IMG/VR virus record: IMGVR_UViG_3300045988_145627
Coordinates: 1-64,000 of that record
Length of the DNA stretch: 64,000 bases
From: a virus
Lineage: Duplodnaviria > Heunggongvirae > Uroviricota > Caudoviricetes
Direction: 5' to 3' (one strand)
Made by a program: the position numbers and the translations under genes
The notes under the pieces: model-generated
The model's input: the letters and a program-made list of their open reading frames with translations, nothing else
Told to the model about the DNA's origin: nothing
The model's database searches: none
Shown: positions 1,920-64,000 of the stretch, piece after piece
How positions within the stretch are numbered: position 1 is the first letter of the stretch
Layout of the letters: each line of letters begins with the position of its first letter

Positions 1920-2186
1920 ATGACGTTAACCGACAAACAAAAGGACATAATCAAAACGCTCAATCTCGGTTATGAGCGAGGTCATCTACTTGATCTGGAC
2001 GAATTGCTTGAAGTTTTGCCGTACAAGACAACCAAGCAAAGTATCCAGTTCTCAATTCGCGCTCTGATAAAAAAGGGGCTGGTGGAGAAAGGGCATACGC
2101 GCCAACGCAGTGACAATCGCTATCACCGCCGAACTCTTGGGTTAACCACTTTAGGTCGAGCCAAAGCGAAGTTACTGGTGATGTAA
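1920..2186 (+). CDS. small basic protein, possible winged-helix DNA binding
   Basis: 88 aa, basic C-terminus; begins 10 nt after previous stop; fold assignment is a guess. Confidence 0.35.
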   Translation: MTLTDKQKDIIKTLNLGYERGHLLDLDELLEVLPYKTTKQSIQFSIRALIKKGLVEKGHTRQRSDNRYHRRTLGLTTLGRAKAKLLVM

Positions 2187-2210
2187 TCGGTCTGGGAGCT
2201 TATTTAAAGA

Positions 2211-2265
2211 CCTGCATCTGTATATATAAATAATAAGTAACTTATTAAATATATACGGAAGCAGG
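2211..2265. promoter_or_regulatory. 55-bp imperfect palindromic element, copy A (CCTGC...TATATAAATAATAAGTAACTTATTAAATATATA...GCAGG)
   Basis: Near-identical copy at 34143-34197; outer CCTGC/GCAGG and inner AATAAGT/ACTTATT inverted arms. Confidence 0.6.
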
Positions 2266-2302
2266 CTTCGTAAGACATGCCAGATCTAATTAAACACACC
2301 AG

Positions 2303-2343
2303 AAAACAAGTTGGTTAGCAGATGCAGTAAACAAGTTGTTTTA
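2303..2343. promoter_or_regulatory. two AAACAAGTTGTTT-type palindromic operator-like sites upstream of terS
   Basis: aaaacaagttggtt and taaacaagttgtttta; same palindrome family at 31838, 35065 and 61081. Confidence 0.5.
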
Positions 2344-2381
2344 GAGCGCATGGACGCGCTCTGTGTGTTTTAGAGGGATCT

Positions 2382-3014
2382 ATGACGGTCGAAAAAGACG
2401 AGGTAAAAACTCGCCTGACACCAGCGGAGTGGGCCGAAGCTGAAGCCAAATGGACGTCAGGCGAATATACACTCTCAAAGCTGGAGGAAGAGTACGGCAT
2501 TCGTCGTGAAACACTCTCCAGACATTTCAAAAAGCGAGGATTAGAGAAAGGCGCGGACTCTGTTGGGAAGATGGTTCGTGAGTCTCTTAAATCTGACGCA
2601 GAGCTTCGCGCTAAAGCCCGTGCGGAAAAGATAGAAGAACGTCGTACACGTTATGACGGCTGGGCGTATGCGTTGGGGCAGATGGTGATGGTCGAAGTCA
2701 CTACGGCCAAACGTGAGGGTAAGCCTTTAGGGGCGATTGAGGATTCTCTCAAGAGCTTACAGAGAGCCAGTAATACCCTTGCAAAATGCTTTGAAGTTTC
2801 GTCCAAAGCATTGGGCATGGATCATGCGGAAAATGACGAGGAAGAAATTCCGAACCTGGTATTTGGTGAGCTTACGCCTTCCCAGGTGGCGAAATTACGT
2901 CAGGAAGACGACGAGCCTGAAATCATCGATGACGAATTGCTTGAGACGTTGGAAGAAGAAGCTCTAAGCGAATTTGATGCGACAGATGATGGAAGTGAAG
3001 GGGAGGACGAATAA
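2382..3014 (+). CDS. terS: terminase small subunit (putative)
   Basis: Immediately upstream of and abutting terL; N-terminal HTH-like segment TLSKLEEEYGIRRETLSRHFKKRG; acidic C-terminal tail. Confidence 0.5.
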   Translation: MTVEKDEVKTRLTPAEWAEAEAKWTSGEYTLSKLEEEYGIRRETLSRHFKKRGLEKGADSVGKMVRESLKSDAELRAKARAEKIEERRTRYDGWAYALGQMVMVEVTTAKREGKPLGAIEDSLKSLQRASNTLAKCFEVSSKALGMDHAENDEEEIPNLVFGELTPSQVAKLRQEDDEPEIIDDELLETLEEEALSEFDATDDGSEGEDE

Positions 3015-4270
3015 TGGCAATCCCGTCCTCACTCAGTCTTGTGCAACTGCATTCTGGACAGATGAAAGTCTTCCAGTCTCCGCATCGATTTAAAGTTGTT
3101 TGTGCTGGTCGACGCTGGGGAAAATCCCGGTTGTCGATCTCCACTATTATTCGTGCGGCGGCAAAGGAAAAAAAGCAAAGGGTCTGGTATGTCGCTCCTA
3201 CTTACCAGATGGCTCGCCAGATTTTGTGGGACGATCTACAGGAAGTTCTGCCTCGTAAGTGGGTTAGGAAAAAGAACGACACCACGATGACAATCGTGTT
3301 GAAGAACGGTTCGGAGATCGCCCTCAAAGGTGCTGATAAGCCTGACACTCTGCGCGGCGTAGCGTTGCATTTTGTAGTGCTTGATGAATTTCAGGATATG
3401 AAGGCTGACACCTGGTACAAGGTGTTACGACCTACTCTTTCATCGACACGCGGCGGTGCACTGATCATTGGTACGCCAAAAGGCTTCTCGGAATTTCACA
3501 AACTGTGGACGATAGGCCAGAACGTAGAGCTGCAAAGAAAGGGACAGTGGAAGAGCTGGCAGTTTGTAACTGCCGATTCTCCGTTTGTACCTACGGCGGA
3601 AATTGAAGCTGCTAAGAACGATATGGACCCCAAATCGTTCGCTCAGGAGTACCTGGCCAGCTTTGAGAACATGTCCGGGCGCGTTTACTACCCGTTCGAT
3701 CGTAACGTGCATGTAAAACCGCTTCAGTTCAACCCTCGGTTGCCTATATGGGTAGGGCAGGACTTCAACATTGACCCGATGTCTTCAGTAATTTTGCAAC
3801 CTCAGCCAAATGGTGAGCTATGGGCAATTGATGAATTGGTGCTCTTTTCCTCTAACACGGCAGAAGTTTGTGATGAGCTTGAGAGACGCTTCTGGCGCTG
3901 GAAATCACAGGTAACGGTATTTCCAGATCCGGCAGGTGCTTATCGCCAACATGCTCGTGGGGAGTCTGACGTAGACATATTCAAAGAGAAGGGATTCTTA
4001 CGTGTCGATTATTCGAAAAAGCACCCGCCAATTGCGGATCGTGTTAATGCTGTTAACCGAATGCTGATGTCCGCATCTGGAGATATCCGGCTGTATATCG
4101 ATCCGAAGTGCAAGCATTTGATTGATTCACTGGAAAAAGTCATCTACAAGCCTGGAACACGAGATATGGATAAGACAGGTGGCATTGAGCATAGTGCAGA
4201 CGCATTGGGCTATCCAGTACATCGTAGGTATCCAGTCAAAAACCGTGTTATTCTTGGTGGTTCTCGATAG
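3014..4270 (+). CDS. terL: terminase large subunit
   Basis: Walker A VVCAGRRWGKS, Walker B VVLDEFQDM; followed by portal gene. Confidence 0.8.
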   Translation: MAIPSSLSLVQLHSGQMKVFQSPHRFKVVCAGRRWGKSRLSISTIIRAAAKEKKQRVWYVAPTYQMARQILWDDLQEVLPRKWVRKKNDTTMTIVLKNGSEIALKGADKPDTLRGVALHFVVLDEFQDMKADTWYKVLRPTLSSTRGGALIIGTPKGFSEFHKLWTIGQNVELQRKGQWKSWQFVTADSPFVPTAEIEAAKNDMDPKSFAQEYLASFENMSGRVYYPFDRNVHVKPLQFNPRLPIWVGQDFNIDPMSSVILQPQPNGELWAIDELVLFSSNTAEVCDELERRFWRWKSQVTVFPDPAGAYRQHARGESDVDIFKEKGFLRVDYSKKHPPIADRVNAVNRMLMSASGDIRLYIDPKCKHLIDSLEKVIYKPGTRDMDKTGGIEHSADALGYPVHRRYPVKNRVILGGSR

Positions 4271-4296: not shown

Positions 4297-5871
4297 ATGG
4301 AATTGAACGACAAACAAATTAAGGATCTGGTGGCGCGACGCCACCCGGAATACGAAAAGAAAAAAGAACATTGGGACTTCCTCGCCAGCACTTACGCTGG
4401 CGGGCGTGGTTGGTTTACAGACAATATCTTTCGTTACTTTAAAGAGGGAGATCAGGAGTTTAAGGAGCGAGTTGAACGTGCTTATCGCTTTAACCACACT
4501 CGTGAGGTGGTAAACCTCATCAACAAATATCTCTTTAAAGAAGACATTCATAGAAATATCGAAGAGGCACCAGAGCAGATCCGCAATTTCTGGAAACGTG
4601 CGACTCGCCAGAATGCCTCTATTGACTCATTTATGGCCGCTATTGATTTGCAGTCGTCTATTTACGGTCGCATATGGGTTGTTGTCGATAGCACGATGAG
4701 TGGTGATGTTGAGTCAGTAGCTGACGAGAAAAAGAAAGATGCTCGCGCCTACGCCTACTGGATTTCACCTCAGCAAATGCTGGATGTGGCATGGGACGAC
4801 GACGGGAATATGTTATGGGCGTTAATTGTGGAAGTCGCTCGCGATGACGCAGATCCTTTTACTTCTACAGGTCAGGAATACCAACGTTATCGTCTGTGGA
4901 CACAAAACGAGTGGTATCTGTTCCGTGAGGAAGTGAAGAAGGGCGCTGGTGGAGCAGGTCGCCGTCAGGCAAAAGTTATTTTAGAGGATAGCGGTGAGCA
5001 TAATCTCGGCGTAGTTCCTGTGTTTCCTGTTGATTGTATTGGAGAAAGTGAATCACCGTATTTCAGCCCATCGTTGATCGATGATATCGCTTATCTTGAT
5101 CGTGCGGTTGCAAACTATCTGTCAAACCTTGATGCCATTATTCAGGATCAGACATTTAGCCAGTTGGCTATACCAGTACAGTCGCTTTTACCTGGTGATG
5201 AAAACCACACTAAAGTGCTTGAAATGGGCACAAAGCGAGTCTTCACCTACGATTCTGAAGGTGGAAACCAGCCGTTTTATCTGTCACCAGACCCGAAACA
5301 AGCTCAGATGATCATCACTACGATTAAGACGGTGATTAACGAAATCTACCATTCAGTTGGTGTAGCTGGTGAGCGAACGAAGCAGGACAACGCACAGGGA
5401 ATCGATAACTCATCTGGTGCCGCAAAAATGTATGACTTCCAGCGTGTAAATAGCTTGCTTGTCACAAAAGCAGAGCGTCTGGAAAGGGCTGAACGCCAAA
5501 TCATGCTACTGGTTGCGAAATGGATGGGGGTAGATCTGGACGAAGACCACTCTTTAATTGCGTATCCAGAAAGTTTCGATATTCGTGGCCTTACTGATGA
5601 ATTTTCTGTTGCCGAGAAACTGTCATTACTTCAGGCACCGGACTCTGTACGTCGTCACCAGATGGAAATGCTTATTGAGAAGATTTTCCCGAACATTACT
5701 GAGGCGATGAAAAAGGAATTTGATAAAGATCTCTTGAATTTTCCTCCAAAAAATGATCTAAATACCCTTGAAAATAAGTCATCACTTACTTATGATCGTG
5801 GTGCAGCCCAAGAAAGCGGGCAAGATCAACCCCGAGGGAATGGGGACTCATCTACTCAAGAGAACGAGTGA
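4297..5871 (+). CDS. portal protein (putative)
   Basis: 524 aa ORF directly after terL with RBS aagg; size and position typical. Confidence 0.65.
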   Translation: MELNDKQIKDLVARRHPEYEKKKEHWDFLASTYAGGRGWFTDNIFRYFKEGDQEFKERVERAYRFNHTREVVNLINKYLFKEDIHRNIEEAPEQIRNFWKRATRQNASIDSFMAAIDLQSSIYGRIWVVVDSTMSGDVESVADEKKKDARAYAYWISPQQMLDVAWDDDGNMLWALIVEVARDDADPFTSTGQEYQRYRLWTQNEWYLFREEVKKGAGGAGRRQAKVILEDSGEHNLGVVPVFPVDCIGESESPYFSPSLIDDIAYLDRAVANYLSNLDAIIQDQTFSQLAIPVQSLLPGDENHTKVLEMGTKRVFTYDSEGGNQPFYLSPDPKQAQMIITTIKTVINEIYHSVGVAGERTKQDNAQGIDNSSGAAKMYDFQRVNSLLVTKAERLERAERQIMLLVAKWMGVDLDEDHSLIAYPESFDIRGLTDEFSVAEKLSLLQAPDSVRRHQMEMLIEKIFPNITEAMKKEFDKDLLNFPPKNDLNTLENKSSLTYDRGAAQESGQDQPRGNGDSSTQENE

Positions 5872-5892
5872 TAAGTAACAAAAGGAATTTTT

Positions 5893-6780
5893 ATGAATCT
5901 GTGGCAAATGCTTTTGGCCCGTCGTGGTCTGATGGATGTCGCTGAAGCGCATGAGCGTGGAGGCGCTGGCGGTGTAGCTGCTGATAATGAGCAGAGTACA
6001 CAAGATCCTGACAAACAGGGTGAACAAAAAGAGCAGCCGAAGGGCGATGACGAATACGCTGGCATGACTCAGGAAGAGTTACTGGCCGAACTTCGTAAAA
6101 CCAAGAAAGCTGGTGCTGAACTGCTGAAGGAGAACATGAAGCGCAAAGAGAAAGAGCGCACATTGGCCGATCAGCTTGCTCAGTACGGTGATATCGATCC
6201 GGCTCGTGCTCGCCAGCTTTTAGAAGCTGAACAGGCCGCAGAAAACGCACGTCGTGAGGCGGAGCAAGCTGAACTGGAGCGTCGTGGTGAGTTCGATGCT
6301 GTTAAAAAACAGATGATCGAAGCACACCAGGCAGAGCTGGCACAGCGTGACGAACGTTATGCAGCACTGGAAAGTGAAAACGCATCACTGAAATCTCAAT
6401 TAGTCGAGATGACCGTGGGCGCTTCCTTCAGTAACTCTCTCTTCCTACGTGACAAAGTTCTGATGACCCCGGCAAAAGCCCGCGTGATCTACGGTTCTCA
6501 TTTTGAAGTGGGTGAAGACGGTAGCGTAGTGGGTTATGACAAACCGGCAGGTCATAAAGAACGAGCTGTTCTGGTTGACGGTGAAGGTAAGCCGTTGCCG
6601 TTTGAATCCGCGATTGAACGCATTGTGCGGGCAGATCCGGAAGCTGACGCATTGATGCGTAGCGAAGCCAAGCAGGGTGTAGGCTCACATTCCAAATCGA
6701 CCTACACAATATCCCAACCGAAGAACAAGTCGACTATGGATAAGTTGGCCTCCGGTCTGGGGAAAATTGGACTTAAGTAA
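5893..6780 (+). CDS. scaffolding protein (putative)
   Basis: Charged, coiled-coil-like composition (AELLKENMKRKEKER..., EAEQAAENARREAEQAELERR) between portal and capsid genes. Confidence 0.5.
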   Translation: MNLWQMLLARRGLMDVAEAHERGGAGGVAADNEQSTQDPDKQGEQKEQPKGDDEYAGMTQEELLAELRKTKKAGAELLKENMKRKEKERTLADQLAQYGDIDPARARQLLEAEQAAENARREAEQAELERRGEFDAVKKQMIEAHQAELAQRDERYAALESENASLKSQLVEMTVGASFSNSLFLRDKVLMTPAKARVIYGSHFEVGEDGSVVGYDKPAGHKERAVLVDGEGKPLPFESAIERIVRADPEADALMRSEAKQGVGSHSKSTYTISQPKNKSTMDKLASGLGKIGLK

Positions 6781-28979: not shown

Positions 28980-29303
28980 ATGTCGAACGAGATGGCGGGC
29001 GTTACAACAGAGCAAGTTGAGCGTATTGCCGCGATCGTTGCTCGGGAGGTTGTTGGCAAATTAGGTAAAGAGCTACGTGAAGAAATTGGCCAGGAGGTCA
29101 ATGATCAGCTGAAAACCTACTTTGGTGATATGACCCCGGCGCAACATAGTATTCAACACTCCAATCTGGACAAACTCCTTAACCGGTTAGATTCCATCTC
29201 AAGTGGGTTCTTTGGCGGCATTGTTTCTAAAATAACGTCGTTCATTATTACCGCACTGCTTTTGGGGTTAGCCGCGTATGGCGTAAAAAGTGGACTGCAA
29301 TAA
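28980..29303 (+). CDS. small membrane-anchored protein, holin/antiholin candidate
   Basis: ATG at 28980 with RBS ggagg; single C-terminal TM ITSFIITALLLGLAAYGV; heads lysis-cassette position. Confidence 0.35.
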   Translation: MSNEMAGVTTEQVERIAAIVAREVVGKLGKELREEIGQEVNDQLKTYFGDMTPAQHSIQHSNLDKLLNRLDSISSGFFGGIVSKITSFIITALLLGLAAYGVKSGLQ

Positions 29304-29316
29304 CAGGAGATCAAGG

Positions 29317-30009
29317 ATGAAGACTCCGAGAGGCATTCGTAATAATAACCCCGGTAATCTTGATAAAGGATCACCGTGGCAAGGTCTGGTTGCGAATCCA
29401 GACGAACCGCGCTTTTGCACGTTTAAAGACCCTGTTTGGGGGATTCGTGCGCTGGCGGTGACTCTAATTACCTACCACGATAAACGTCGCGCAAAAGACG
29501 GCACAAGTATCGATACCATTCGTGAAGTTATTGAACGCTGGGCACCGCCGAATGAAAACAATACTGACGCCTACATTAATGAGGTGTCTAAAGCCGTTGG
29601 TGTAACCGCAGACATGATCATCGATCTGCATGATTACGACATCCTTCGACCTTTGGTTGAGGCAATCATTCGCCACGAGAATGGCCGAGGCCCGCTAAAA
29701 ACGCTGAACACCTGGTATGCGGCAGAAGTTATTGAGGAAGGTCTGCGTCGAGCTGGCGTTGTTAAGCCGGTGAAAACCGTGAAGGCTGTTCCTGTAACTA
29801 AAGAAACTGCAGGCGCAACTGTTACAGCAGGTATTGGTCTGGCGCAGCTGGCCGATGTTATGCCGCAGGTTTCCGCTGCTATGGATAAGGCACAAGGTCA
29901 TATCTCTAGCGGGGATACAGTACGCATCATCTTCGGCATTGCCACTATTGTTGTGGCTGGATTCATTGCCTGGTCGCAGGTAAGAAGACACCAGAAAGGG
30001 ATGGTCTAA
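29317..30009 (+). CDS. putative endolysin/peptidoglycan hydrolase with C-terminal membrane anchor
   Basis: ATG at 29317 with RBS aggag; N-terminal RNNNPGNL motif; sits between membrane protein and spanins; enzymatic class not established. Confidence 0.4.
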   Translation: MKTPRGIRNNNPGNLDKGSPWQGLVANPDEPRFCTFKDPVWGIRALAVTLITYHDKRRAKDGTSIDTIREVIERWAPPNENNTDAYINEVSKAVGVTADMIIDLHDYDILRPLVEAIIRHENGRGPLKTLNTWYAAEVIEEGLRRAGVVKPVKTVKAVPVTKETAGATVTAGIGLAQLADVMPQVSAAMDKAQGHISSGDTVRIIFGIATIVVAGFIAWSQVRRHQKGMV

Positions 30010-30010
30010 T

Positions 30011-30262
30011 ATGCTAGGCAGCCTGATGACAAAGCTAAAAGTTGCTTTGATTACGCTGGCTGCCGTTCTTTTCGTTCTGGTCGGCGCTTACACGATGGGC
30101 GGAAATGCGGCGCGACGAGCAATGGAAGAGAAGGCAAAACAGGAAGACAGGAAACGACTTCAAAGCACATTGGACGTCAAAAATGAAACACTTGATGAGT
30201 TACGGAGCAAGGATGCTTCTACTGTTCATCATGAGTTGCACAATAAATGGTTGCGTGATTAA
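30011..30262 (+). CDS. i-spanin (Rz-like)
   Basis: N-terminal TM LKVALITLAAVLFVLVGAY followed by charged helical periplasmic segment. Confidence 0.6.
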   Translation: MLGSLMTKLKVALITLAAVLFVLVGAYTMGGNAARRAMEEKAKQEDRKRLQSTLDVKNETLDELRSKDASTVHHELHNKWLRD

Positions 30263-30413
30263 GCCTCAACCCGCTGGTGTGCTTTTCTGCGATGCGGCTA
30301 CACCGCTATACATCAGCCGTGATGATCTCATGACCGAAGAGACTGAAAGAGAGGTGCTTTTTCACAATATGATAGGGGAGCGATTGTGTGGATGGGGCAG
30401 AAAAGTACCATAA
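30183..30413 (+). CDS. o-spanin (Rz1-like), overlapping the i-spanin in +1 frame
   Basis: Signal peptide with candidate lipobox Cys (MLLLFIMSC or TINGC), proline-rich mature part with Cys residues; start uncertain (30183/30195/30213). Confidence 0.5.
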   Translation: MKHLMSYGARMLLLFIMSCTINGCVIKPQPAGVLFCDAATPLYISRDDLMTEETEREVLFHNMIGERLCGWGRKVP

Positions 30414-54841: not shown

Positions 54842-55840
54842 CTATCTTGAATTAGGGGCTTTCTCTATAATTATTCGATTCAGAATATGATTACGATCAC
54901 TGTATGGTTCGAAATGTTCTGCAATCGAGTATGAACCGACACTACGTGCGACCACATCTTCAAAATATTCAAGGATTTTAGGTAGATACTTTTCATAATT
55001 TTGTGAACAAATCGACACTACAGGATCGAATTCTACTAATCGACGCTTTACACGTATATGGTTATTTATTTTTTCATATTCATTCATCATAGAGTTCAAG
55101 TCTGGTACTACCCGCTCAGGGCTACACAGGTAGGTGCTGCGGTCATACTCGTCTCCGAATTTATCAAGAGGAACACCTATCTCTAGCAACGTCTTGTTTA
55201 CTCGCTTTGCAAGCTCAATTATCTCTTTATCTTCTTCTGTAAGCCACATGTCGACCCACTTTTGTTTGTCTGCCCATTCAGACAGATAATCATCCTTATT
55301 GAAAGTTACAGGAGCACATCCAGAGTCACTTCTTAATGCTTTATCCTTTATTTTAGAAATTGTTTTTTTATCTAAATGCTTCCAATAAATAGCAGGTTCG
55401 TCTAATTCATTATCATCGTGTAGGCATATCAAAACAATTACCACAGGAAAATCACAACTTCCCCAATAGGTTATATTTTTATAAGGTATTTGTACGCTTA
55501 ACCTTCTCTTCATTTTGCGTGAGGTGGTTTTTATCTGAACGCCGATAAAAAAACCTGTCGAAAGATTATTTTCATATATTTCAACCTGAGCATCCAATCC
55601 CATATCAATATCTAGCAATCGACAAGGCCATCTGAAATAACGAGAAATCCAATAGGCAAACAAGTACTCTCCAGCGTGTCCATCCGCACTGGTTTTCGGA
55701 TATGTCATACCTTCAGTTTTATTCTTTTCTGCCGCTGGCTTTACAGACTTAGCTTTTGGGGGGAGGGCTGTTTTTTTAGTCGGCACTGACTTTGTTGCTT
55801 TGACTTGTTTGTTAGCCTTATCCATTGGTTTTATTCTCAA
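54842..55840 (-). CDS. A+T-rich protein with Lys-rich N-terminus and PD-(D/E)xK-like nuclease-fold motifs (DUF4365-like, from memory)
   Basis: GHAGEYLFAYWISRYF...LDIDMGLDAQVEIYENN...GFFIGVQIKT pattern; opposite strand to flanking replication genes. Confidence 0.45.
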   Translation of the reverse strand: MRIKPMDKANKQVKATKSVPTKKTALPPKAKSVKPAAEKNKTEGMTYPKTSADGHAGEYLFAYWISRYFRWPCRLLDIDMGLDAQVEIYENNLSTGFFIGVQIKTTSRKMKRRLSVQIPYKNITYWGSCDFPVVIVLICLHDDNELDEPAIYWKHLDKKTISKIKDKALRSDSGCAPVTFNKDDYLSEWADKQKWVDMWLTEEDKEIIELAKRVNKTLLEIGVPLDKFGDEYDRSTYLCSPERVVPDLNSMMNEYEKINNHIRVKRRLVEFDPVVSICSQNYEKYLPKILEYFEDVVARSVGSYSIAEHFEPYSDRNHILNRIIIEKAPNSR

Positions 55841-55968
55841 TTTGCTTTGCTCGGTGTGCCTCCTGATTCTGCACCTTAGCGCCGATACTGTCTACCGCCA
55901 ATCATGACAGTAAAGCTCTATTTGTTTGATATAATCAGATACACGAAAGTAAGTTTGAGCATATCAAT

Positions 55969-56400
55969 ATGAACACCGATATTTACGAGAAAATAATGTC
56001 TGATCTCGAGTTTGACAGAGACAATCTGGAAGACGTCTGGCGTAAACAACCTCGCCTGTTGATGGAGTATGGTTCAAAGCTCGCCCATGCAGAAAGAAGT
56101 GTCGCAGAGGCAAAACTTAACCTTGAAGCTGTTGAAGCAAAGCTATACGACACAGAGCGTAAAAACTTGAGTATGAACGGCATTAAGTTTAACGAATCTG
56201 TACTAGACGCTAAGGTTAAAACAAACCCACAGTATCTGTCTAAACGGCAAAAGTTGGATGAAGCACGGCACATCGCAGACATATACAAACATGCTGTCGC
56301 CGCCTTTTCGCATCGCCGAGACATGATCGTTCAGGCGTCGAAGATGGCTATCGTTGAATTAGAGCGATTAGGCTCTGAACGCTTTATTACTCCCCGTTGA
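55969..56400 (+). CDS. hypothetical coiled-coil protein
   Basis: 143 aa ORF. Confidence 0.4.
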   Translation: MNTDIYEKIMSDLEFDRDNLEDVWRKQPRLLMEYGSKLAHAERSVAEAKLNLEAVEAKLYDTERKNLSMNGIKFNESVLDAKVKTNPQYLSKRQKLDEARHIADIYKHAVAAFSHRRDMIVQASKMAIVELERLGSERFITPR

Positions 56401-56517
56401 TTTTTGATAGATAATAAGTAAGTACTGATCTATCATTTAACAGCTCGAAAGAGCCACGAATGAACGAAAGCCCAACGCGCATAGCGCCATCGGCCAAATC
56501 ACAACAAGGAGAAACAC

Positions 56518-57546
56518 ATGTCTAAGACATTACTTGATTTGCTTAACAAAACTCGTGAAGACATTGCCGCCAAACGTGGCAACAACGTTGATCTGACTCG
56601 TTTAAAAGACGGCGTCAACTATATCCGCATCTTCCCGAATAAAGACGACCCAAACGGTAAGTTCTTCCAGACTTTCGGTATGCACTACGTTAAGTATCAG
56701 AACGAGGAAGGTAAAGAAGCAACCAACGCTTATATTTGTGAGCAACATACTCACGGTCGCGCTTGTCAGCTATGCGAAATGGTGATGGAAGGTCGCGCTC
56801 GTCACAAGGGTAACAAAGCAATGGAAGAACGCATCGGTCAAATGCGTGCCACTCCTCGCTACCTGGTCAACGGCATTCTTTCTGCTCGTGAGGATTTCGC
56901 AGATGCTGAGAAATGCCAGTTAATCGAGCTGCCGTCTACTGTATTCGATGATATCTGCAAAGCAATCACCGAAGACATCGCTGATGATATCGGCAATCCA
57001 CTGAGCAAAGAGGAAGGCTACGCATTCCTGATTAAACGTACTGGCTCTGGTCGCGATACCAAATATGACGTCTCGCCTAAGCGTAAAGTCTACAAAGGCG
57101 ATATCGAAGATAAATTCTGGAACACCCAGCATGATCTGATCGCATACGCAAATCAGGCTGATGAAACTCGTCTTCTGTCGACAGTTCGCACTATGGGTCG
57201 TCTGATTGGCATCGCTGCACCAACTGCCGCAGCATCTGCACCAGCAATTTCCTCAACCGCGAAAACATCGGCTGCGGCACTACCTGGATTTGGCTCTGTC
57301 ACTGGTCATACAGAAGGAGCGACGGCTGTAGCAACCGCGCACACACCGGCTTCTGAACCAACCAGTCTGGTTGATGAAGAAATCCTCCGTGCCGTTGAAA
57401 CTGAATTTAAACCAGAGGCAAGTTCCGCTGCCGTTGCCGTATCAGTCAAAGAGTCTGAAGCAGTCGCAGCGACATCTGTAGCAACCGCATCTGCGACGGA
57501 AGATGAAGGTCTGGATGACCTACTGAGAGAGCTGGACTCTCTGTAA
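56518..57546 (+). CDS. ssDNA-binding protein (T4 gp32-like)
   Basis: IRIFPNKDDPNGKFFQTFGMHYVK and H...C..C zinc motif (CEQHTHGRACQLC); acidic C-terminal tail DEGLDDLLRELDSL. Confidence 0.7.
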   Translation: MSKTLLDLLNKTREDIAAKRGNNVDLTRLKDGVNYIRIFPNKDDPNGKFFQTFGMHYVKYQNEEGKEATNAYICEQHTHGRACQLCEMVMEGRARHKGNKAMEERIGQMRATPRYLVNGILSAREDFADAEKCQLIELPSTVFDDICKAITEDIADDIGNPLSKEEGYAFLIKRTGSGRDTKYDVSPKRKVYKGDIEDKFWNTQHDLIAYANQADETRLLSTVRTMGRLIGIAAPTAAASAPAISSTAKTSAAALPGFGSVTGHTEGATAVATAHTPASEPTSLVDEEILRAVETEFKPEASSAAVAVSVKESEAVAATSVATASATEDEGLDDLLRELDSL

Positions 57547-57562
57547 TCCCATTACGTGACCA

Positions 57563-57591
57563 GTAAGGCGTCTACGGACGCCTTACTTTTT
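57563..57591 (+). terminator. intrinsic terminator (GGCGTC/GACGCC family)
   Basis: GTAAGGCGTC-tacg-GACGCCTTAC followed by TTTTT. Confidence 0.65.
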
Positions 57592-57606
57592 GGAAGGAAT
57601 GTACCG

Positions 57607-58551
57607 GTGAATTATCTCTTCGTAGATGGCAATAGCCTGGGTTATTACCACCAACAATCTGACAAATTGCACAACGGCGAAATGGAAGTACAGGCTGCTT
57701 TCGGCTTTGTTAAGAACGTCCGTCGTTATGCCTCCATCCTCCATGCCCGACCTATGATTCTTTGGGATGGATTTAGTGACAAGCGTCGCGACTTTTACCC
57801 GGACTACAAAGCAAATCGCGACGACGATCCTGATATGAAAAAGATGAAGGAAGGCTTTGCTATCCAGAAGCCATACATCCTCAAAATGATGACCGCGCTT
57901 GGTATTAACCAAATCATTGCAAAAGATGCAGAAGCGGATGATCTGGCCGGGCTGCTGGTATCCCGCATGGCACCGCAGCCAACCGTTGAACACATCTATC
58001 TGTTAACAGGCGATAGCGACTGGCTTCAGTTAGTTCGCGAAAACGTAAGCTGGGTAAGCCTGCGTGAAGACGCCAAAAACAAGCAGGTTAATTTTGAGCA
58101 ATTTGCGGAGCTGACAGGATTCGCCACGCCTCGCGCATTTTTGGAAGCAAAAGCATTACAAGGCGATAACTCGGACAACATTAGCGGTGTTGGTGGCATT
58201 GGTGCTGGCGGTGCGAAAGAGCTGCTGCATGAATGGGGAAGTGTCGCAACGATGGTACGCGGCATCAACGACGGCTCAATCGTGGTTAATAAAGGGCGTC
58301 ATAAGACCGCCTTCAACAAACTAGCGAAGAATGCCTTCAACGAGAAAACAGGCTGTCGAATGCTCGAAGCGTTCAAGAGAAACATCACGCTAATGAACCT
58401 GATTGAGACGAAGTTTCCGCCTACCGAAATCGAAACAATCAAAGGCAATCGTGACGTGAAAGCATTCGAGCAACTGTGCTACGAGCTGAATTTCCGTTCG
58501 TTCCTTGAAGACCTTGAAGTGTTTGTTCTTCCATTCGAAAGGTATTGCTAA
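57607..58551 (+). CDS. 5'-3' exonuclease / flap endonuclease (RNase H-like)
   Basis: LFVDGNSLGY, YLLTGDSDWLQLV, GIGAGGAKELL (H3TH); GTG start at 57607 after RBS ggaagg preferred because track start 57556 lies inside the terminator hairpin. Confidence 0.7.
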   Translation: MNYLFVDGNSLGYYHQQSDKLHNGEMEVQAAFGFVKNVRRYASILHARPMILWDGFSDKRRDFYPDYKANRDDDPDMKKMKEGFAIQKPYILKMMTALGINQIIAKDAEADDLAGLLVSRMAPQPTVEHIYLLTGDSDWLQLVRENVSWVSLREDAKNKQVNFEQFAELTGFATPRAFLEAKALQGDNSDNISGVGGIGAGGAKELLHEWGSVATMVRGINDGSIVVNKGRHKTAFNKLAKNAFNEKTGCRMLEAFKRNITLMNLIETKFPPTEIETIKGNRDVKAFEQLCYELNFRSFLEDLEVFVLPFERYC

Positions 58552-58817
58552 TGCTTAAATCGATTATCAATGGCGCTACAACCACCCCTGCCCAACTGGC
58601 AAAAGAGATTGTCTTTTATCACGGTGAGTACGCTGTCATCGCACTGCCGTCAATTCTAGGCGCTGCCGGAATGAAAGCGACAGATCGCGAGTTTGGATTA
58701 GTCAGCGAGCAGGTCGTAAAAATCCTCGCTCGTGTATCCAGACTCCTTAACCACGATGCGATTGTATTCGATGAATCCGCCGCTTTAAAACGAATCAACG
58801 AAACAAAAGGAGCCTGA
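58545..58817 (+). CDS. hypothetical protein
   Basis: 90 aa, start overlaps exonuclease stop. Confidence 0.35.
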   Translation: MLMLKSIINGATTTPAQLAKEIVFYHGEYAVIALPSILGAAGMKATDREFGLVSEQVVKILARVSRLLNHDAIVFDESAALKRINETKGA

Positions 58818-58819
58818 TC

Positions 58820-59893
58820 ATGGCAAAAGGAAAATCCGCACTGGCACTTGCTCTGAAAAAGAAAATCGGTAGCAACGACGAAATTCAGAAAGTAACTCAT
58901 TGGATTGATACAGGCTTTCCACCGTTAAACAAAGCTATTTCTGGTCGTTACGATGGCGGCTTCCCATGTGGTCGTATCGTCGAAGTATTCGGTCCTCCAA
59001 GTGCAGGGAAAACGTTCCTTGCAACAGCAGCGATGATCTCCGCTCAAAAACAAGATGGTCTGGCGGTATTCCTCGATCATGAAAACAGTTTTGACGTTGG
59101 CCTGGCTGTAGCCAATGGCCTGAACGCAGATGAGGATGACGGTCAGTGGGTATACAAGCAGCCTGACACCTTCGAAGACTCTGTAGAGTTGATCGGCACA
59201 ATACTTAAATTGGTACGTGATGAAGAGCTTATCCCTGAATCAGCACCTATCTGTATCGTGGCTGACTCACTTGCGTCTATGGTTCCGAACTCCAAAGCCG
59301 AGAAGTTCGAAAAGATGGCTGAAGGCACTGCCAAAGACAAAGATCAGCTAAACATGAACGACAATACGGCACTGGCTCGTGCGACAAGTGCGAACTTCCC
59401 TACTCTGGCTTTGTGGGCACGCAAATACAACGCCTGCATCATCTTCTTGAATCAGGTTCGCACAAAAATCGGTGTAATGTTTGGCGACCCTACTACGTCG
59501 CCAGGTGGAGATTCACCGAAGTTCTACGCTTCTGTACGTATCCGTCTTGGTGCATCGGTGATGAAGGATGGTAAAGAGAAGATCGGCCAGGACGTAGGCG
59601 CAGAATGCATCAAAAACAAAGTTGCACCACCGTATGGCAAATGCACCTGGAAATTCTACTTCGATCCTACTCGTGGCCTCGACGTTATCGAATCGCTCGT
59701 CGAGTACATGCTGGAAGAAGGATACCTGCCAAAGAACGCCAGCGGGCGAGTTGAAATTGGTGACAAGAAATACACCAAATCGCAGATCGTCGAGATGTAT
59801 CGGGAGAAGCCACTGGCTGAAATCATTGCGGCTTTGCAGGCAATCGACGACCGAAGAGCAAAAGACAACCCCACCGAGTCAGTAGAAGAGTAA
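58820..59893 (+). CDS. RecA-family recombinase
   Basis: Walker A region RIVEVFGPPSAGKTFLA; RBS aaaggag. Confidence 0.75.
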   Translation: MAKGKSALALALKKKIGSNDEIQKVTHWIDTGFPPLNKAISGRYDGGFPCGRIVEVFGPPSAGKTFLATAAMISAQKQDGLAVFLDHENSFDVGLAVANGLNADEDDGQWVYKQPDTFEDSVELIGTILKLVRDEELIPESAPICIVADSLASMVPNSKAEKFEKMAEGTAKDKDQLNMNDNTALARATSANFPTLALWARKYNACIIFLNQVRTKIGVMFGDPTTSPGGDSPKFYASVRIRLGASVMKDGKEKIGQDVGAECIKNKVAPPYGKCTWKFYFDPTRGLDVIESLVEYMLEEGYLPKNASGRVEIGDKKYTKSQIVEMYREKPLAEIIAALQAIDDRRAKDNPTESVEE

Positions 59894-59898
59894 ACACA

Positions 59899-59923
59899 AG
59901 GCGTCCACAGGACGCCTTTTTTA
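59899..59923 (+). terminator. intrinsic terminator (GGCGTC/GACGCC family)
   Basis: AGGCGTCC-acag-GACGCCT followed by TTTTTT. Confidence 0.75.
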
Positions 59924-59985
59924 TCTCTTGAAAATATATAAGCACTTACTTATTATTTTCGCATAACAACCACATAGGAAAACAC

Positions 59986-60186
59986 ATGATCAAAATCTAT
60001 CTATTGGCAGTAGCCACAGGCCTTTCAGTGGCTCTCATCTACGGTTTACTGGTTCCGTCGCTGATTTCTACCAAGAGTGATTTAGCCGTCATGTTTGGAG
60101 TTATCGTTGGTTTTGGTGCTCCTGTAATCGGTCTTATTGCTGGTCGTAAGTTTATCAACTCATTAATCAAAGCAAAGGGGAAATAA
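59986..60186 (+). CDS. small two-TM membrane protein with basic C-terminus
   Basis: IYLLAVATGLSVALIYGLLV and VMFGVIVGFGAPVIGLIAG helices, C-terminal RKFINSLIKAKGK. Confidence 0.45.
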   Translation: MIKIYLLAVATGLSVALIYGLLVPSLISTKSDLAVMFGVIVGFGAPVIGLIAGRKFINSLIKAKGK

Positions 60187-60189
60187 GTA

Positions 60190-61020
60190 ATGAAGAAAGG
60201 TTTACTTGCAGTTGCTCTGGCGGCTATTTGCACAATGGGTCTTACTGGCTGTGATCGCGTGGAGCCTGGATACGTTGGCATCAAAGTAAACAAATTAGGT
60301 GAAGACAAAGGGATTGGTGAAGTGGTTGGCGTTGGTCGCCAATGGACAGGTCTTAACACCGAACTTTACGTATTCCCGACCTTCAAACAAATGAAGACCT
60401 ACGACGAGCCGTTCACATTCCAGATGAGTGACGGTACTGCTATTGGTCACAAAATTGGCGTTGCGTATCTGGTTAATCGTGACAAGGTAACGACGGTGTT
60501 CCAGACCTATCGCAAAGGCGTAGACGATATCACCGAATCAGATCTGCGTCAGAAAATTGCCGACTCTCTAAACCGTTTGGCCAGCCGTATGACCACTGAC
60601 TCATTTATCGACGGTGGTAAGGCACAATTGCTGGACAACGCACTGAAAGATATTCAGAAAGAGATGTCTCCGGTTGGTATTGAGGTACTGAGCCTGTCAT
60701 GGGTTGGAAAGCCTGATTACCCAAAAACTGTCATTGAATCTATTAACGCCAAAGTAACGGCTAACCAGCGTACTCTGCAACGTCAGCAGGAAGTTGAACA
60801 ACGTAAAGCTGAGGCGAATATGCTACGTGAACAGGCTAATGGTGAAGCTGATGCTATCCGTGCTCGTGCGCAAGCAGAAGCAGACGCCATTCGTCTGCGC
60901 GGTGAAGCTCTGCGTCAAAACCCGAACGTTATGGAACTGGAAGCCATCAATAAATGGAATGGCCAGTTACCGCAGTACATGACTCAAGGGGCTAACACTC
61001 CTTTCATTACAGTGAAATAA
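60190..61020 (+). CDS. SPFH/Band-7 domain lipoprotein
   Basis: Lipoprotein signal ...MGLTGC; SPFH-like VEPGYVGIKV start; C-terminal coiled coil QRKAEANMLREQANGEADAIRARAQAEADAIR. Confidence 0.65.
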   Translation: MKKGLLAVALAAICTMGLTGCDRVEPGYVGIKVNKLGEDKGIGEVVGVGRQWTGLNTELYVFPTFKQMKTYDEPFTFQMSDGTAIGHKIGVAYLVNRDKVTTVFQTYRKGVDDITESDLRQKIADSLNRLASRMTTDSFIDGGKAQLLDNALKDIQKEMSPVGIEVLSLSWVGKPDYPKTVIESINAKVTANQRTLQRQQEVEQRKAEANMLREQANGEADAIRARAQAEADAIRLRGEALRQNPNVMELEAINKWNGQLPQYMTQGANTPFITVK

Positions 61021-61036
61021 CTCCCCTAAAAAGTTC

Positions 61037-61062
61037 AGGCGTCCAGTTGGACGCCTTTTTTA
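61037..61062 (+). terminator. intrinsic terminator (GGCGTC/GACGCC family)
   Basis: AGGCGTCCA-gt-TGGACGCCT followed by TTTTTT. Confidence 0.75.
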
Positions 61063-61111
61063 TCGCAATTATCTTATTAAGAAAACAATTTGTTTAAAAG
61101 AATAAGAAAAC

Positions 61112-61537
61112 ATGACAGCTATTAAGAAACTCTACGATGCCGCAAACGTGGCTCTGGATGTTATTGATGATGAAGCAGCAAAAGGCTTTCCTGAACCTGA
61201 TTGGGCGCATCAGCTACGAAACGCTATCGCCGAAATGAATCCACCAGATCCGAGCACCGACGAGACAGACTGGCAGCGATTTATCCGTATGTACGCTCAG
61301 GAAATAGGTCCAACGCCAACGGCAGAGCAAGCAATGCTGCTGAAATACTTCAAAGAGGCGGGAGAGGATTTACCAATTGATGACTCAGCATATTGGTTCC
61401 ACTGCGCATGGCGTAAGTATGACGTGATATTCACACAAGGCATGGGGAGCAAAGATATGGTTGTGTGGCATCTACTCCATATAGACACAGCCGTTGACAG
61501 AGTTATTGAACAGTTTTTCCCTAAACAAGAAGATTGA
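61112..61537 (+). CDS. hypothetical protein
   Basis: 141 aa ORF preceded by AAACAATTTGTTT palindrome. Confidence 0.4.
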   Translation: MTAIKKLYDAANVALDVIDDEAAKGFPEPDWAHQLRNAIAEMNPPDPSTDETDWQRFIRMYAQEIGPTPTAEQAMLLKYFKEAGEDLPIDDSAYWFHCAWRKYDVIFTQGMGSKDMVVWHLLHIDTAVDRVIEQFFPKQED

Positions 61538-61592
61538 TCGCCTATTCATAACTAACAAAATAAGTAAACACTAACCACAAAAGGAAAAACAC

Positions 61593-61868
61593 ATGAGAGT
61601 TTTAGTTCGAATCGTTACCAGCACTGTCTATGACGTGTTTCCGCTTTTTATGGTCAAAGCCGATGGCCTTAACGACGAAGAAACTGACGCGCTGATCCAG
61701 CGTATTCTCGTTGAATATACAGGTCATGACGCTGATTCAGTGATGGTTGATGATGATGGTGTTTGTTGGCATAACGGCAACTGTTGGTACGTAGAAGAGA
61801 CTCAACAAATCAGTGATGAAGATGCCGCACATCTTGAGCGTATTTTAAGCATCAGCACTTTTGAGTGA
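61593..61868 (+). CDS. hypothetical acidic protein
   Basis: 91 aa ORF with RBS aaagga. Confidence 0.4.
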   Translation: MRVLVRIVTSTVYDVFPLFMVKADGLNDEETDALIQRILVEYTGHDADSVMVDDDGVCWHNGNCWYVEETQQISDEDAAHLERILSISTFE

Positions 61869-61910
61869 GTTTACAGTAAATTTATATAAATAAGTTAGTA
61901 TCTACCTATC

Positions 61911-62090
61911 ATGAAGATTTTTATTGAATACTTGTTACTCATCGTTTCAATAGCTTTTGTCATCGACTGCATTTTCACCGGTGTCATTCGTAAAGTCTTT
62001 TCCCCGGTGAACGACGTAGTCATAAACGCTTTGGCTATCGTGCTCGTATTTAATTCAGCATTTGATGTAATCAAAGAGGTGGCAGCATGA
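61911..62090 (+). CDS. small hydrophobic protein (59 aa), putative
   Basis: Below track cutoff; hydrophobic IEYLLLIVSIAFVIDCIF; stop overlaps next start (ATGA). Confidence 0.3.
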   Translation: MKIFIEYLLLIVSIAFVIDCIFTGVIRKVFSPVNDVVINALAIVLVFNSAFDVIKEVAA

Positions 62091-62422
62091 AGGCCATCCC
62101 ATTCGCGCTGTTGTTCCTTTCTTCGATCGTTGTGGCCGACACCACTGTTTATCAGTGTGAAATGTCTGTAGCCGACGTTAAGAATGGCGCTCTTACCGAC
62201 GTCATAAAAGCACCATATGGAGCGATGGTCGTAGACAGCGGCGACCAGTTCTATGTTGTGCGTGACGATCGAGTGTTGTCATCCCCATATCTCACAAATC
62301 GTAATGGCAAATTAACCGGCGTCGGAGAAGACCACTTCGTATACAACAAATACAAGGGCTTCTATGGTGTTCACGCTTCTCAGCAAAGCTACCTTTTCGA
62401 TGACTGCAAGGAGGTTGGATAA
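62087..62422 (+). CDS. small secreted protein
   Basis: Signal peptide MKAIPFALLFLSSIVVADT, two Cys. Confidence 0.4.
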   Translation: MKAIPFALLFLSSIVVADTTVYQCEMSVADVKNGALTDVIKAPYGAMVVDSGDQFYVVRDDRVLSSPYLTNRNGKLTGVGEDHFVYNKYKGFYGVHASQQSYLFDDCKEVG

Positions 62423-62634
62423 TGGCATTAACACTGGCAGGTCTGGAAATCGAGAAAACAAGCGGCTACTGGCGTGCTAAGGGTTTCAAGCAGCCTGGCA
62501 TTCTTGAGCGTCTGGAACGTGAAGATGGGTATATCGTCCACCAGCGGCGTGAATGGCGTATGTACGATCCAGAAACAGGAAAACTGACTACAAAAGCCGG
62601 AACACTTTGGGGTCTGTTAAAGAAAATACACTAA
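62422..62634 (+). CDS. hypothetical small protein
   Basis: 70 aa, start overlaps previous stop. Confidence 0.35.
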   Translation: MALTLAGLEIEKTSGYWRAKGFKQPGILERLEREDGYIVHQRREWRMYDPETGKLTTKAGTLWGLLKKIH

Positions 62635-62682
62635 ATGCAAACTGACTGCGGCACGTTCCGCAGTCATATTTCATAGTCGTCA

Positions 62683-63214
62683 CCGCTGACAGCATACACA
62701 ATCAACTACCGCTGATAGCATATCGAGAGTCTATCTCACCGCTCACAGCATACTTTACTCGATTTTTTACCGCTGACAGCATACTTAAGACATTGCATGA
62801 ATAATGTGTACCGGTATGGGTATAACCAGAACAAAATTACCGCTGGCAGCATACGAAGGTCTGACATATACCATTAATTACCGCTGATAGCATATCCAAA
62901 CAAAAATTCCTCAATAAAACACCGCTGACAGCATACGTTCTATCAGGGAGCAGCAGGCAATAAATGCCTTTCACTACAAGCAATCAGCGCAATAGCAATA
63001 GAATGTTAGTGAGCGCAAACCTATATGGAATGCACTCTTCGAGGTTAGTAACCACTGGGGAGGTATGACAGAGCATTGAGTGGTGATAGATGATTTACCG
63101 CCCACAGCATACGTTCATCTCACTATACCGCTGGTAGCATATCTTTAACCGTTCACAGCATACTTTTCAGAAAAATAGCCGCTGATAGCATACATTTCAC
63201 CGCTGACAGCATAT
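62683..63214. repeat. iteron array: 12 direct copies of 15-bp CCGCTGA(C/T)AGCATA(C/T), putative plasmid replication origin
   Basis: Copies at 62683, 62709, 62739, 62770, 62840, 62881, 62922, 63098, 63128, 63149, 63179, 63200 in two clusters; adjacent to rep-like gene. Confidence 0.85.
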
Positions 63215-64000
63215 CAAAGCAGTTTGAGACTATTGGAAAGGATCTCAATCATCTTGATATTTTCAGGCGTCAAATTCTGCGAAAGTTCGGTTATCTTGTT
63301 GATAATGTTCTGTTTGGCATCAATTTCCCCAGCTTTCTCATCTAGTTTTTTGGGTTCGATGTCTTCAGGTTTTGGCGGTGCGACTTTGAGTTTTGGATTG
63401 CGGCTGTGAATCTGGATATAGATCGACCGCCCTCGTTTAATCTCGCTGTATTCGAGATAACCCAAATCTTGGAGAGCTTTTAAGCCGTTGCGTATAGTCT
63501 GATTCTGCGAGCTGACATTCCTGCTACTCAAATTGAGTCGCGCACGCAATCGAGCAAGCGACACCGGCGCAGGCTTGGTTGGAAGACTTTCGATGAAGGT
63601 GTACAGAGCCTGTGCTGTTTCTTTGCGTGGTAGCTTATTGATAACCTTTAACTGCAAAAGAACCTTATGGTCAAAGCGATATAGTTCGGCCAGCTTCGGT
63701 TCTGCATAGAACACCACCGTATCTTTCTGCTCGTTGTAGTCCACGCTATTGATGAGGTGCACCATCAGAAGCGAGATCTTGTTAGAGCCGTCGACGTTCT
63801 TTTCTTCATACGTTCTCTGGAAAGACAGAGTTGTACGCATGATCTTCAAAAGACTGTTTGTAAGCCGGTCGCGGAGTGTTTTGCGGATCTGTGACGATGG
63901 ATAGCCACAAAACTTCGCAAATTTCGTGATGCTTAACTCGACACGACCGTTAGGTTCGCCGTATTCTGCCAGCGAACGCACAACGCCCACCCACGTTTTG
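63214..64000 (-). CDS. replication initiator (iteron-binding Rep-like, winged helix), 5' end may lie beyond window
   Basis: ORF open to window edge; basic Lys-rich N-terminus and helix-rich LPRKETAQALYTFIESL segment; abuts iteron array. Confidence 0.6.
   Translation of the reverse strand, partial: KTWVGVVRSLAEYGEPNGRVELSITKFAKFCGYPSSQIRKTLRDRLTNSLLKIMRTTLSFQRTYEEKNVDGSNKISLLMVHLINSVDYNEQKDTVVFYAEPKLAELYRFDHKVLLQLKVINKLPRKETAQALYTFIESLPTKPAPVSLARLRARLNLSSRNVSSQNQTIRNGLKALQDLGYLEYSEIKRGRSIYIQIHSRNPKLKVAPPKPEDIEPKKLDEKAGEIDAKQNIINKITELSQNLTPENIKMIEILSNSLKLL

Follow-up and report, generated by a model that had tools for sequence, protein, structure and literature searches.

A conserved SPFH lipoprotein and its two-helix partner form a putative accessory module bounded by repeated terminators in an SSU5-like phage-plasmid

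Between recA and the gene of a DUF7238 protein, an SSU5-like phage-plasmid carries two genes enclosed by near-identical terminators, one encoding a 66-residue protein with two predicted transmembrane (TM) helices and the other a 276-residue SPFH lipoprotein. The locus raises the question of what such a pair does and why its borders are built in this way. The DNA analyzed here, hereafter the window, is a stretch of 64,000 nucleotides (positions 1 to 64,000 of IMG/VR record IMGVR_UViG_3300045988_145627). Judged by sequence comparison, the pair is a conserved phage SPFH module that the anchor, the partner and the carriers set apart from known SPFH systems. Both genes were found as open reading frames (ORFs) on the + strand where the initial annotation had placed them, at 59986–60186 (66 residues) and 60190–61020 (276 residues); they share a frame, and the spacer between them is TAA GTA only (60184–60192). 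The source element is an SSU5-like phage-plasmid: the DNA around the cassette is 99% identical to Escherichia phage CMS-2020a, phages PhiR41_1 and Cyrano are 94–96% identical to the cassette region, and the recA-through-DUF7238 stretch matches many ~110-kb non-mobilizable E. coli plasmids at 99% identity.

The SPFH/Band-7 character first proposed for the downstream product is borne out by profile and structure searches. Residues 23–209 align with positions 2–176 of the 176 positions of the Pfam Band_7 profile (PF01145), with 106.2 bits for a cut-off of 23.6 (E = 2.6e-30), and the protein matches phrog_200, annotated as 'lipoprotein', with E = 3e-108. In the AlphaFold2 (AF2) model (predicted local distance difference test score, pLDDT, 74.9), an alpha/beta domain spans residues 20–176, with its strands in 20–95 and its helices in 97–162. 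It is followed by a continuous helix of 65 residues (179–243), which corresponds to the C-terminal coiled coil that had been predicted, and then by a short helix and a conserved tail. A Foldseek search with this model returned HflK/C, prohibitin, erlin, stomatin, flotillin, the major vault protein and QmcA, the matches being near full length, with a probability of 1.0 over 240–300 columns and E-values down to 3.5e-13. The best matches were 7vhq, 9cz2 and 7wi3; QmcA came at rank 42.

Sequence searches pointed to HflK and HflC as well: phmmer against the PDB retrieved HflK (7vhq) with E = 0.007, and the NCBIfam profiles hflC (TIGR01932) and hflK (TIGR01933) scored 30.2 bits (E = 2e-7) and 18.7 bits, for cut-offs of 134.4 and 159.4, respectively. 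Since these sequence scores are remote, we regard the 276-residue protein as an SPFH scaffold and not as an HflK/C orthologue. Note that many phage records (phiP27 L05, Shiga toxin (Stx) phages) carry the label 'serine protease' for this protein; no Pfam protease domain was found, and the label was treated as a legacy mis-annotation.

The claim that this product is a lipoprotein also stands. Its N-terminus, MKKGLLAVALAAICTMGLTG/C, reads as MKK, a hydrophobic core and LTG directly before Cys21, with Asp at +2, and the sequence LTGC agrees with the lipobox pattern [LVI][ASTVI][GAS]C; the SPFH domain sets in two residues past Cys21. A lipobox of the L(V/T)GC type occurs in 102 of the 120 closest homologues, 96 of these 102 having Asp-Arg at +2/+3, and a cysteine stands at the lipobox position in most of the distant family representatives too. 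According to the +2 rule, an enterobacterial lipoprotein with Asp at +2 stays in the inner membrane.

Repeated loss of the lipobox cysteine (to Tyr, Trp or Phe) was observed in family clusters P0002–P0012, from E. coli SSU5-like plasmids, and in P0075, P0076, P0081 and P0082, from Klebsiella. These Cys21-less proteins are otherwise intact and 95% identical; P0005, one of the eleven 90%-identity clusters of the Cys21Tyr sublineage, is found on 175 contigs. Tethering of such copies to the membrane could persist through the uncleaved signal.

The product of the upstream gene was predicted by AF2 to form a helical hairpin, in agreement with the two-TM topology originally assigned to it: helices 2–28 and 32–65 are separated by a three-residue turn. 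Because the C-terminus is strongly basic (RK...KAKGK), both ends are predicted to be cytoplasmic. The protein matches phrog_1130 (E = 2.1e-25) and belongs to a family with a conserved turn motif, P-x-L-I-S-x-x-S; the small proteins of SSU5, P88, phiP27 and RCS47 have Y5, Y19, L22, P24, I27, S28, G38 and P46 in common. Searches of Pfam and NCBIfam gave no match, and the NfeD-like partner for which a profile search had been suggested was not recovered, the protein consisting of two helices only.

The association of the two genes is constant in 80 IMG/VR loci: a small two-TM ORF lies directly 5' of the SPFH gene, with a gap of −20 to +3 nucleotides, in 76 of them, and the remaining four have a small ORF as well (two fall below the hydropathy threshold, one runs off the contig and one is interrupted by an insertion). 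The same arrangement is seen in SSU5, in the P2-like phage P88, in the Stx phage phiP27 and in the P1-like phage RCS47, the small ORF being unannotated in the latter two; among virulent phages, clear homologues of the small partner are gp044 of Erwinia phage S6 and gene 180 of Klebsiella K54_rec3. With an exhaustive phmmer search, 195 representatives of the family were retrieved at E < 1e-30, and among the best 150 some 18 are single chains of 320–390 residues comprising the two-TM module, a third hydrophobic segment and the SPFH domain; such fusions include an enterobacterial one (P0021, 347 residues) and occur in many distant lineages, among them Patescibacteria. When free small proteins were aligned with the fused modules by hhalign, the probability was 98.4% (E = 4e-15) and the P-x-L-I-S-x-x-S turn was the same.

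These natural fusions provide Rosetta-stone evidence that the two products act together, and from their topology the SPFH domain faces the periplasm at the inner membrane and the ends of the hairpin lie in the cytoplasm. From the comparisons above, the 66-residue protein is an obligate, dedicated partner of the SPFH protein, and Asp at +2 together with the fusions suggests that the SPFH lipoprotein resides in the inner membrane. A relationship of the small protein to P1 TciB was considered and rejected (hhalign probability 0.4%).

Two kinds of interruption were noted in individual loci. In Shigella flexneri and E. coli chromosomes (loci L011 and L012, ~5020–6000), an insertion of ~0.8 kb separates the small gene from the SPFH gene, and in locus L099 (~2000–3940) an insertion of ~1.9 kb interrupts the small gene itself, which suggests occasional decay of the pair.

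The upstream product had also been described as holin-like. This holds for its size and topology, and not for a role in lysis: small size, TM segments and a charged C-terminus are all present, whereas the location typical of a holin gene, in a lysis cassette next to endolysin and spanin genes, is not. Indeed, the gene is paired with the SPFH gene, and the window has its own holin/endolysin/Rz/Rz1 cassette at 28980–30380, ~30 kb from the pair and 94.6% identical to Cyrano CYRAN_22-25. On this context, the 66-residue protein was rejected as the lysis holin.

How widespread is the module? A homologue of the SPFH gene is present in 737 of 5,426 complete E. coli genomes (~1 in 7), about half of them chromosomal (prophages) and half on plasmids; homologues are also encoded on at least 472 IMG/VR contigs and in 377 GenBank phage records. 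Temperate carriers comprise SSU5-, P1-, P2- and Stx-type phages, the SSU5-like plasmids coming from Escherichia, Salmonella, Kluyvera, Buttiauxella and Yersinia pestis. Further carriers are found among Schitoviridae (e.g. Erwinia S6), rV5/PVP-SE1-like, FelixO1-like, phiCbK and crAss-like phages and Lak megaphages, and among phages of Caulobacter, Erwinia, Xanthomonas and Patescibacteria. The Schitoviridae (N4-like), rV5-like, FelixO1-like, phiCbK, crAss-like and Lak carriers are generally considered virulent.

The neighbors of the pair are early or DNA-metabolism genes on its own strand in every backbone inspected, and in none does it lie in a lysis or structural module; it adjoins an endolysin or spanin gene in none of nine phage backbones. 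In lambdoid Stx phages the SPFH gene is near int/xis, and in a Sutterella genome the pair is directly 5' of a phage-type primase gene. As the pair spans many types of temperate and virulent phage, its function is presumably one used during infection generally, and the breadth of its carriers disfavors a role specific to the lambda-type lysis–lysogeny decision or to animal hosts.

The P1 family offers one more context: the slot between upl and ban holds tciA-tciB-tciC in P1, terB in P7, or the pair of small-TM and SPFH genes. The pair occupies this slot in RCS47 (2738–3782 of locus L006; the corresponding P1 interval is 1162–1858 of locus L038) and in several other 'P1' records. The tciABC genes resemble the pair in combining one soluble or peripheral protein with tiny membrane proteins; there is no homology, however, TciA being TerB-like and not an SPFH protein.

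Set beside cellular SPFH systems, the phage module shows a mixture of shared and private features. With HflK/HflC (PDB 7vhq, 7wi3 and 9cz2) it shares the SPFH1/2 domain, the long helix and the C-terminal segment, and also, as predicted for the phage protein, a periplasm-facing SPFH domain at the inner membrane. By contrast, the phage protein is only ~16–18% identical to them, its locus has a single SPFH gene instead of a K/C heteropair, it is lipid-anchored where HflK/C have an N-terminal TM helix and a cytoplasmic tail, and its partner is the 66-residue hairpin. The operons encoding SPFH and NfeD proteins (QmcA–YbbJ, PDB 8z5g; archaeal stomatin PH1511–PH1510) are similar in being two-gene systems composed of an SPFH scaffold and a small multi-TM protein, which in their case sits inside the assembly. 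The phage partner differs in having two TM helices only, with no NfeD OB-fold, protease domain or Pfam match. Moreover, QmcA is cytoplasmic, whereas the phage SPFH domain would be periplasmic and lipid-anchored.

We turn to the borders of the cassette, which the initial annotation had described as terminators with a common stem and a third relative nearby; terminator scan, folding and pattern search agree on this point. The upstream terminator (59898–59923, + strand; terminator scan and folding energy), which is that of recA, reads AAGGCGTCC-ACA-GGACGCCTT followed by T6 and forms a 9-bp stem at 59898–59918 with the loop ACA. The downstream one (61037–61062, + strand; scan, pattern search and folding energy) reads AGGCGTCC-AGTT-GGACGCCT followed by T6 and forms an 8-bp stem at 61037–61056 with the loop AGTT. 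Both thus have GC-rich stems of 8–9 bp with 6 GC pairs and a T6 tail, and they have in common 9 nucleotides of the left arm and 16 nucleotides (GGACGCCTTTTTTATC) of the right arm plus tail. Their folding energies are −15.0 and −15.1 kcal/mol, respectively (z = −4.9 and −3.7 relative to shuffled sequences). The third family member (57563–57591, + strand), detected by the pattern search between the gene of a gp32-like single-stranded DNA-binding protein (SSB) and that of a 5'–3' exonuclease, reads GGCGTCTACGGACGCC plus a T-run (−19.8 kcal/mol, z = −4.6). The pattern GGCGTC-N4-9-GACGCC occurs three times in the 64-kb window and never in 100 shuffles.

These hairpins are conserved in relatives. 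The third terminator is unchanged in SSU5 and in the cassette-less Klebsiella element pJN2-26; the downstream one is kept in the SSU5, Kluyvera, Buttiauxella and Y. pestis relatives; and in the upstream one of Y. pestis, pairing is retained through a compensatory double change (GGCGCCC/GGGCGCC). Both flanking copies, each with its own loop, are kept between the window and SSU5 lineages, whose cassette regions are ~79% identical, so that the duplication goes far back within the SSU5 group. The idea that the terminators travel with the cassette was rejected: the P88, phiP27, RCS47, Pantoea and Lelliottia copies end in unrelated hairpins.

Directly after the first terminator lies a sigma-70-type promoter-like site, TTGAAA-17 nt-TATTAT (59928–59956, + strand), which matches 10 of 12 consensus positions and is the top-scoring site of this type within 55000–64000. 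Six relatives (from Escherichia, Salmonella (SSU5), Kluyvera, Buttiauxella and Y. pestis), with identities in the cassette region that fall to about 79%, all have the same −35 hexamer, and their −10 hexamer reads TAT(T/C)AT. The site may well be an active promoter. The anatomy of the locus, i.e. terminator, predicted promoter, two genes and terminator, would then be that of an autonomous unit, which the flanking terminators may insulate transcriptionally.

The cassette is a presence/absence polymorphism. An artificial empty-site query, in which the left flank up to and including the first terminator runs straight into the right flank, was searched against the plasmid collection. It was matched in one piece, at 98.8% identity, by plasmid A of E. 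coli D4 (NZ_CP010144.1), whose junction, when read and aligned, consists of the recA stop codon, a single terminator with the upstream loop (ACA), ...TTTTTTATCGCAATT... and the right flank. At this site, the plasmid equals the window minus exactly 59926–61064 (+ strand), a unit of 1,139 bp that contains the promoter-like site, the two genes and one terminator copy. The SSU5 lineage offers an independent empty site in plasmid p1 of Enterobacter hormaechei (NZ_CP034755.1): the one terminator there combines the left flank with the downstream loop, which puts the crossover in the other arm. Overall, the flanks adjoin in about 63 plasmid records, and the full arrangement is found in 365. The cassette is not a virion component: recombination and replication genes surround it, and some related plasmids do without it.

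Because the empty sites keep a single copy, the flanking terminators are the direct repeats that bound the polymorphism. The crossover points differ and each lies on the flanks of its own lineage, so that recurrent precise deletion between the repeats fits the junctions better than ancestral absence. One might instead take the likeness of the terminators as the mere scar of a recent insertion, a target duplication with no continuing role. Direct repeats of 9 and 16 nucleotides do flank the 1,139-bp unit exactly, and only one copy is present at the empty sites. We nevertheless consider this explanation improbable: the duplication is old, as seen from the distinct loops kept across ~79%-identical lineages; the stems have been maintained, once through the compensatory change; the two empty sites, with their different crossovers on own-lineage flanks, point to recurrent deletion; and a third family member lies outside the cassette.

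Several observations concern the same site in other elements. In Y. pestis, the 108-kb contig of strain NCTC5923 (L010) has the cassette, with an SPFH protein 94% identical and the small gene present, and in plasmids of 95–101 kb the flanks match as two distinct hits, in keeping with an occupied site. SSU5-like elements of Klebsiella have a different recA terminator and unrelated cargo on the opposite strand after recA; in pJN2-26 (L004, 6110–7010) it consists of a gene for a 258-residue protein with a weak HTH_Crp_2 match and a 40-codon ORF. Since other cargo is carried there, the position after recA is a cargo hotspot. The pJN2-26 cargo did not match defense models, which leaves the argument for a defense hotspot unsupported.

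In its layout, the cassette resembles a moron: it has its own promoter-like site and terminator, lies between two backbone neighbors (recA on one side, the DUF7238 gene on the other) and is present or absent among close relatives. It departs from morons in that the pair of P88, phiP27 and S6 is embedded in early operons without these terminators, and in that the flanking terminators are themselves the recombining repeats.

What, then, could the pair do? We propose the following model. The 66-residue hairpin would lie in the inner membrane with both ends in the cytoplasm and its P-x-L-I-S-x-x-S turn at the periplasmic face, and a lipid anchor would hold the 276-residue protein on that face of the membrane. 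Like its nearest relatives in structure, HflK/C, prohibitin and erlin, the SPFH protein would oligomerize into a ring or dome, by way of its 65-residue helix and its conserved C-terminus, and the dome would fence off a patch of inner membrane holding the small partner. The AF2 predictions are of monomers, and ring or cage assembly was read from architecture; the oligomeric cage, its inner-membrane location and its biological role are thus all to be taken as probable at best. Since temperate and virulent phages alike have the pair among their early genes, it would most likely act in the phage-occupied cell during infection. Its job would be to protect or insulate the inner membrane, by blocking the entry of superinfecting phage DNA, by keeping the membrane intact and energized, or both. 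The near-identical terminators would, for their part, serve both for transcriptional insulation and as repeats for precise loss of the cassette.

Membrane proteins that exclude superinfecting phages include Imm and Sp of T4, the lipoprotein Ltp of Streptococcus thermophilus phage TP-J34 and SieA of P22. The phage pair is similar to these proteins, as compared by description only, in that they are expressed early or from the prophage, are small and located in the inner membrane and/or tethered to its outer face, and are accessory genes in variable slots. None of them is an SPFH protein, however, and exclusion by the phage pair is hypothetical.

Envelope protection by a periplasm-facing SPFH assembly, whether through exclusion of superinfecting DNA, membrane integrity or both, is the reading we tentatively favor, while rating it slightly below an even chance. 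A broader version, in which the pair is a near-universal early phage module that cages the outer face of the host inner membrane and thereby controls this membrane, either by blocking superinfecting DNA or by caging host machinery, e.g. FtsH, seems to us rather doubtful. A number of observations weigh against envelope protection as we picture it. In Pasteurella multocida, outer-membrane vesicles contain a prophage-encoded HflK/C-like protein (25–35 kDa; PMC9872710), whose homology to the phage SPFH family is unverified. Position +2 is Glu or Tyr in some homologues from enteric phages, so retention in the inner membrane by the +2 rule is not universal, and Cys21 is replaced by Tyr in a common E. 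coli sublineage, whose copies, on their sequence, either need no lipidation or are inactive. Promoter-like sites are no commoner across the 9-kb region than in shuffled sequences, the candidate at 59928–59956 being a consensus match only. Neither cassette protein matched any defense model of PADLOC-DB 2.0 at E ≤ 0.1. Finally, the literature library searched contained no study giving the phage SPFH family a function: phage SPFH proteins appear there in genome annotations, in trace virion mass-spectrometry counts for a Vi01-like phage and in the case of Pasteurella PM0222.

Other functions have to be weighed against the same evidence. HflK/C modulates FtsH, and FtsH degrades lambda CII. The pair could accordingly be a mimic of HflK/C, its periplasmic assembly caging or displacing the host complex and altering the turnover of FtsH substrates (lambda CII/CIII-type regulators, membrane proteins, LpxC) and, with it, the lysis–lysogeny decision or host physiology. 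HflK and HflC are indeed the nearest relatives in both sequence and structure (7vhq by phmmer, NCBIfam hflC, Foldseek), their SPFH domain likewise faces the periplasm, and the gene lies near int/xis in lambdoid Stx phages. That said, scores of 30 and 19 bits are far under the hflC and hflK cut-offs of 134 and 159, a lipid anchor replaces the N-terminal TM and cytoplasmic segment of HflK/C, and the dedicated partner is a two-TM mini-protein, not FtsH. In addition, the pair is conserved to the same degree in phages of the P1, P2 and SSU5 types and in virulent ones (N4-like, rV5-like and crAss-like), for which no CII-type decision arises. We therefore give this mechanism little credence. A role in the timing of lysis, with a holin- or antiholin-like small protein gated by the SPFH assembly so as to tune membrane permeabilization, appears quite unlikely: its size and N-in/C-in two-TM topology are those of class II holins and pinholins, and SPFH cages are generally known to sequester membrane proteins (as in the HflK/C–FtsH and QmcA–YbbJ structures), yet a complete lysis cassette is found elsewhere, at 28980–30380, the pair is not beside an endolysin or spanin gene in any of the nine backbones, and related plasmids lose it cleanly while keeping their backbone.

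A last alternative is lysogenic conversion, the protein acting in virulence as a triacylated lipoprotein that is shed in vesicles and recognized through Toll-like receptors (TLR) 1/2, or that changes surface properties. The precedent is P. multocida PM0222, a prophage HflK/C-like protein present in outer-membrane vesicles, which signals through TLR1/2 and contributes to virulence in mice (PMC9872710); the promoter-like site of the cassette, and its frequency in E. coli, Stx phages and Y. pestis pMT1-type plasmids, would agree with such a role. We find it hard to credit, given that the homology of PM0222 to the phage family is unverified, that virulent phages and phages of environmental and plant bacteria, where a function in an animal host makes no sense, carry the pair, and that the obligate two-TM partner would be left unexplained.

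If envelope protection holds and the pair excludes phages or stabilizes the membrane of the infected cell, it would matter for the prediction of host range and the design of phage cocktails. The pair is present in Stx-converting phages, in P1- and SSU5-type phage-plasmids (including those of Y. pestis, of 95–101 kb) and in groups used in therapy (N4-like, rV5-like and FelixO1-like). The structures of SPFH cages (HflK/C, prohibitin, flotillin, erlin, stomatin) are now understood, while their functions are obscure; a minimal, dispensable two-gene phage SPFH system with a dedicated client would be unusually tractable for studying what a cage does. Should the broader version be confirmed, this would be the first SPFH assembly with a defined role in virus–host conflict. 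Independently of function, the terminator-repeat boundary provides a concrete example of how phage-plasmids shed accessory cassettes.

The genes around the cassette are, in order, those of a UvsY-like protein, the gp32-like SSB, the 5'–3' exonuclease, a small ORF, RecA, the cassette pair, DUF7238, small ORFs and RepA. The GC content of the cassette is 45–48%, as in the adjoining genes, and thus bears no compositional trace of recent transfer; an Rfam scan of 57300–61400 returned nothing relevant. The window's recA (58820–59893, 357 residues) is intein-free. Its counterparts in Cyrano, PhiR41_1 and many related plasmids are 2,340 nucleotides long and contain an intein with a LAGLIDADG homing endonuclease, so that a second presence/absence polymorphism adjoins that of the cassette. 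The exonuclease ORF as mechanically called, from a GTG at 57556, reads through the third terminator (57563–57591); judging by the Cyrano annotation, its true start is probably the GTG at 57607. Lastly, a low-GC gene (35–39%) at 54842–55840, on the − strand, lies just 5' of the UvsY-like gene (55969–56400) and encodes a DUF4365 restriction-endonuclease-like product that matches the PADLOC model 'Aga_REase' with E = 1.7e-10. Cyrano has HicA/HicB toxin–antitoxin genes 5' of uvsY, and the slot upstream of uvsY looks like a variable slot for defense or toxin–antitoxin genes.

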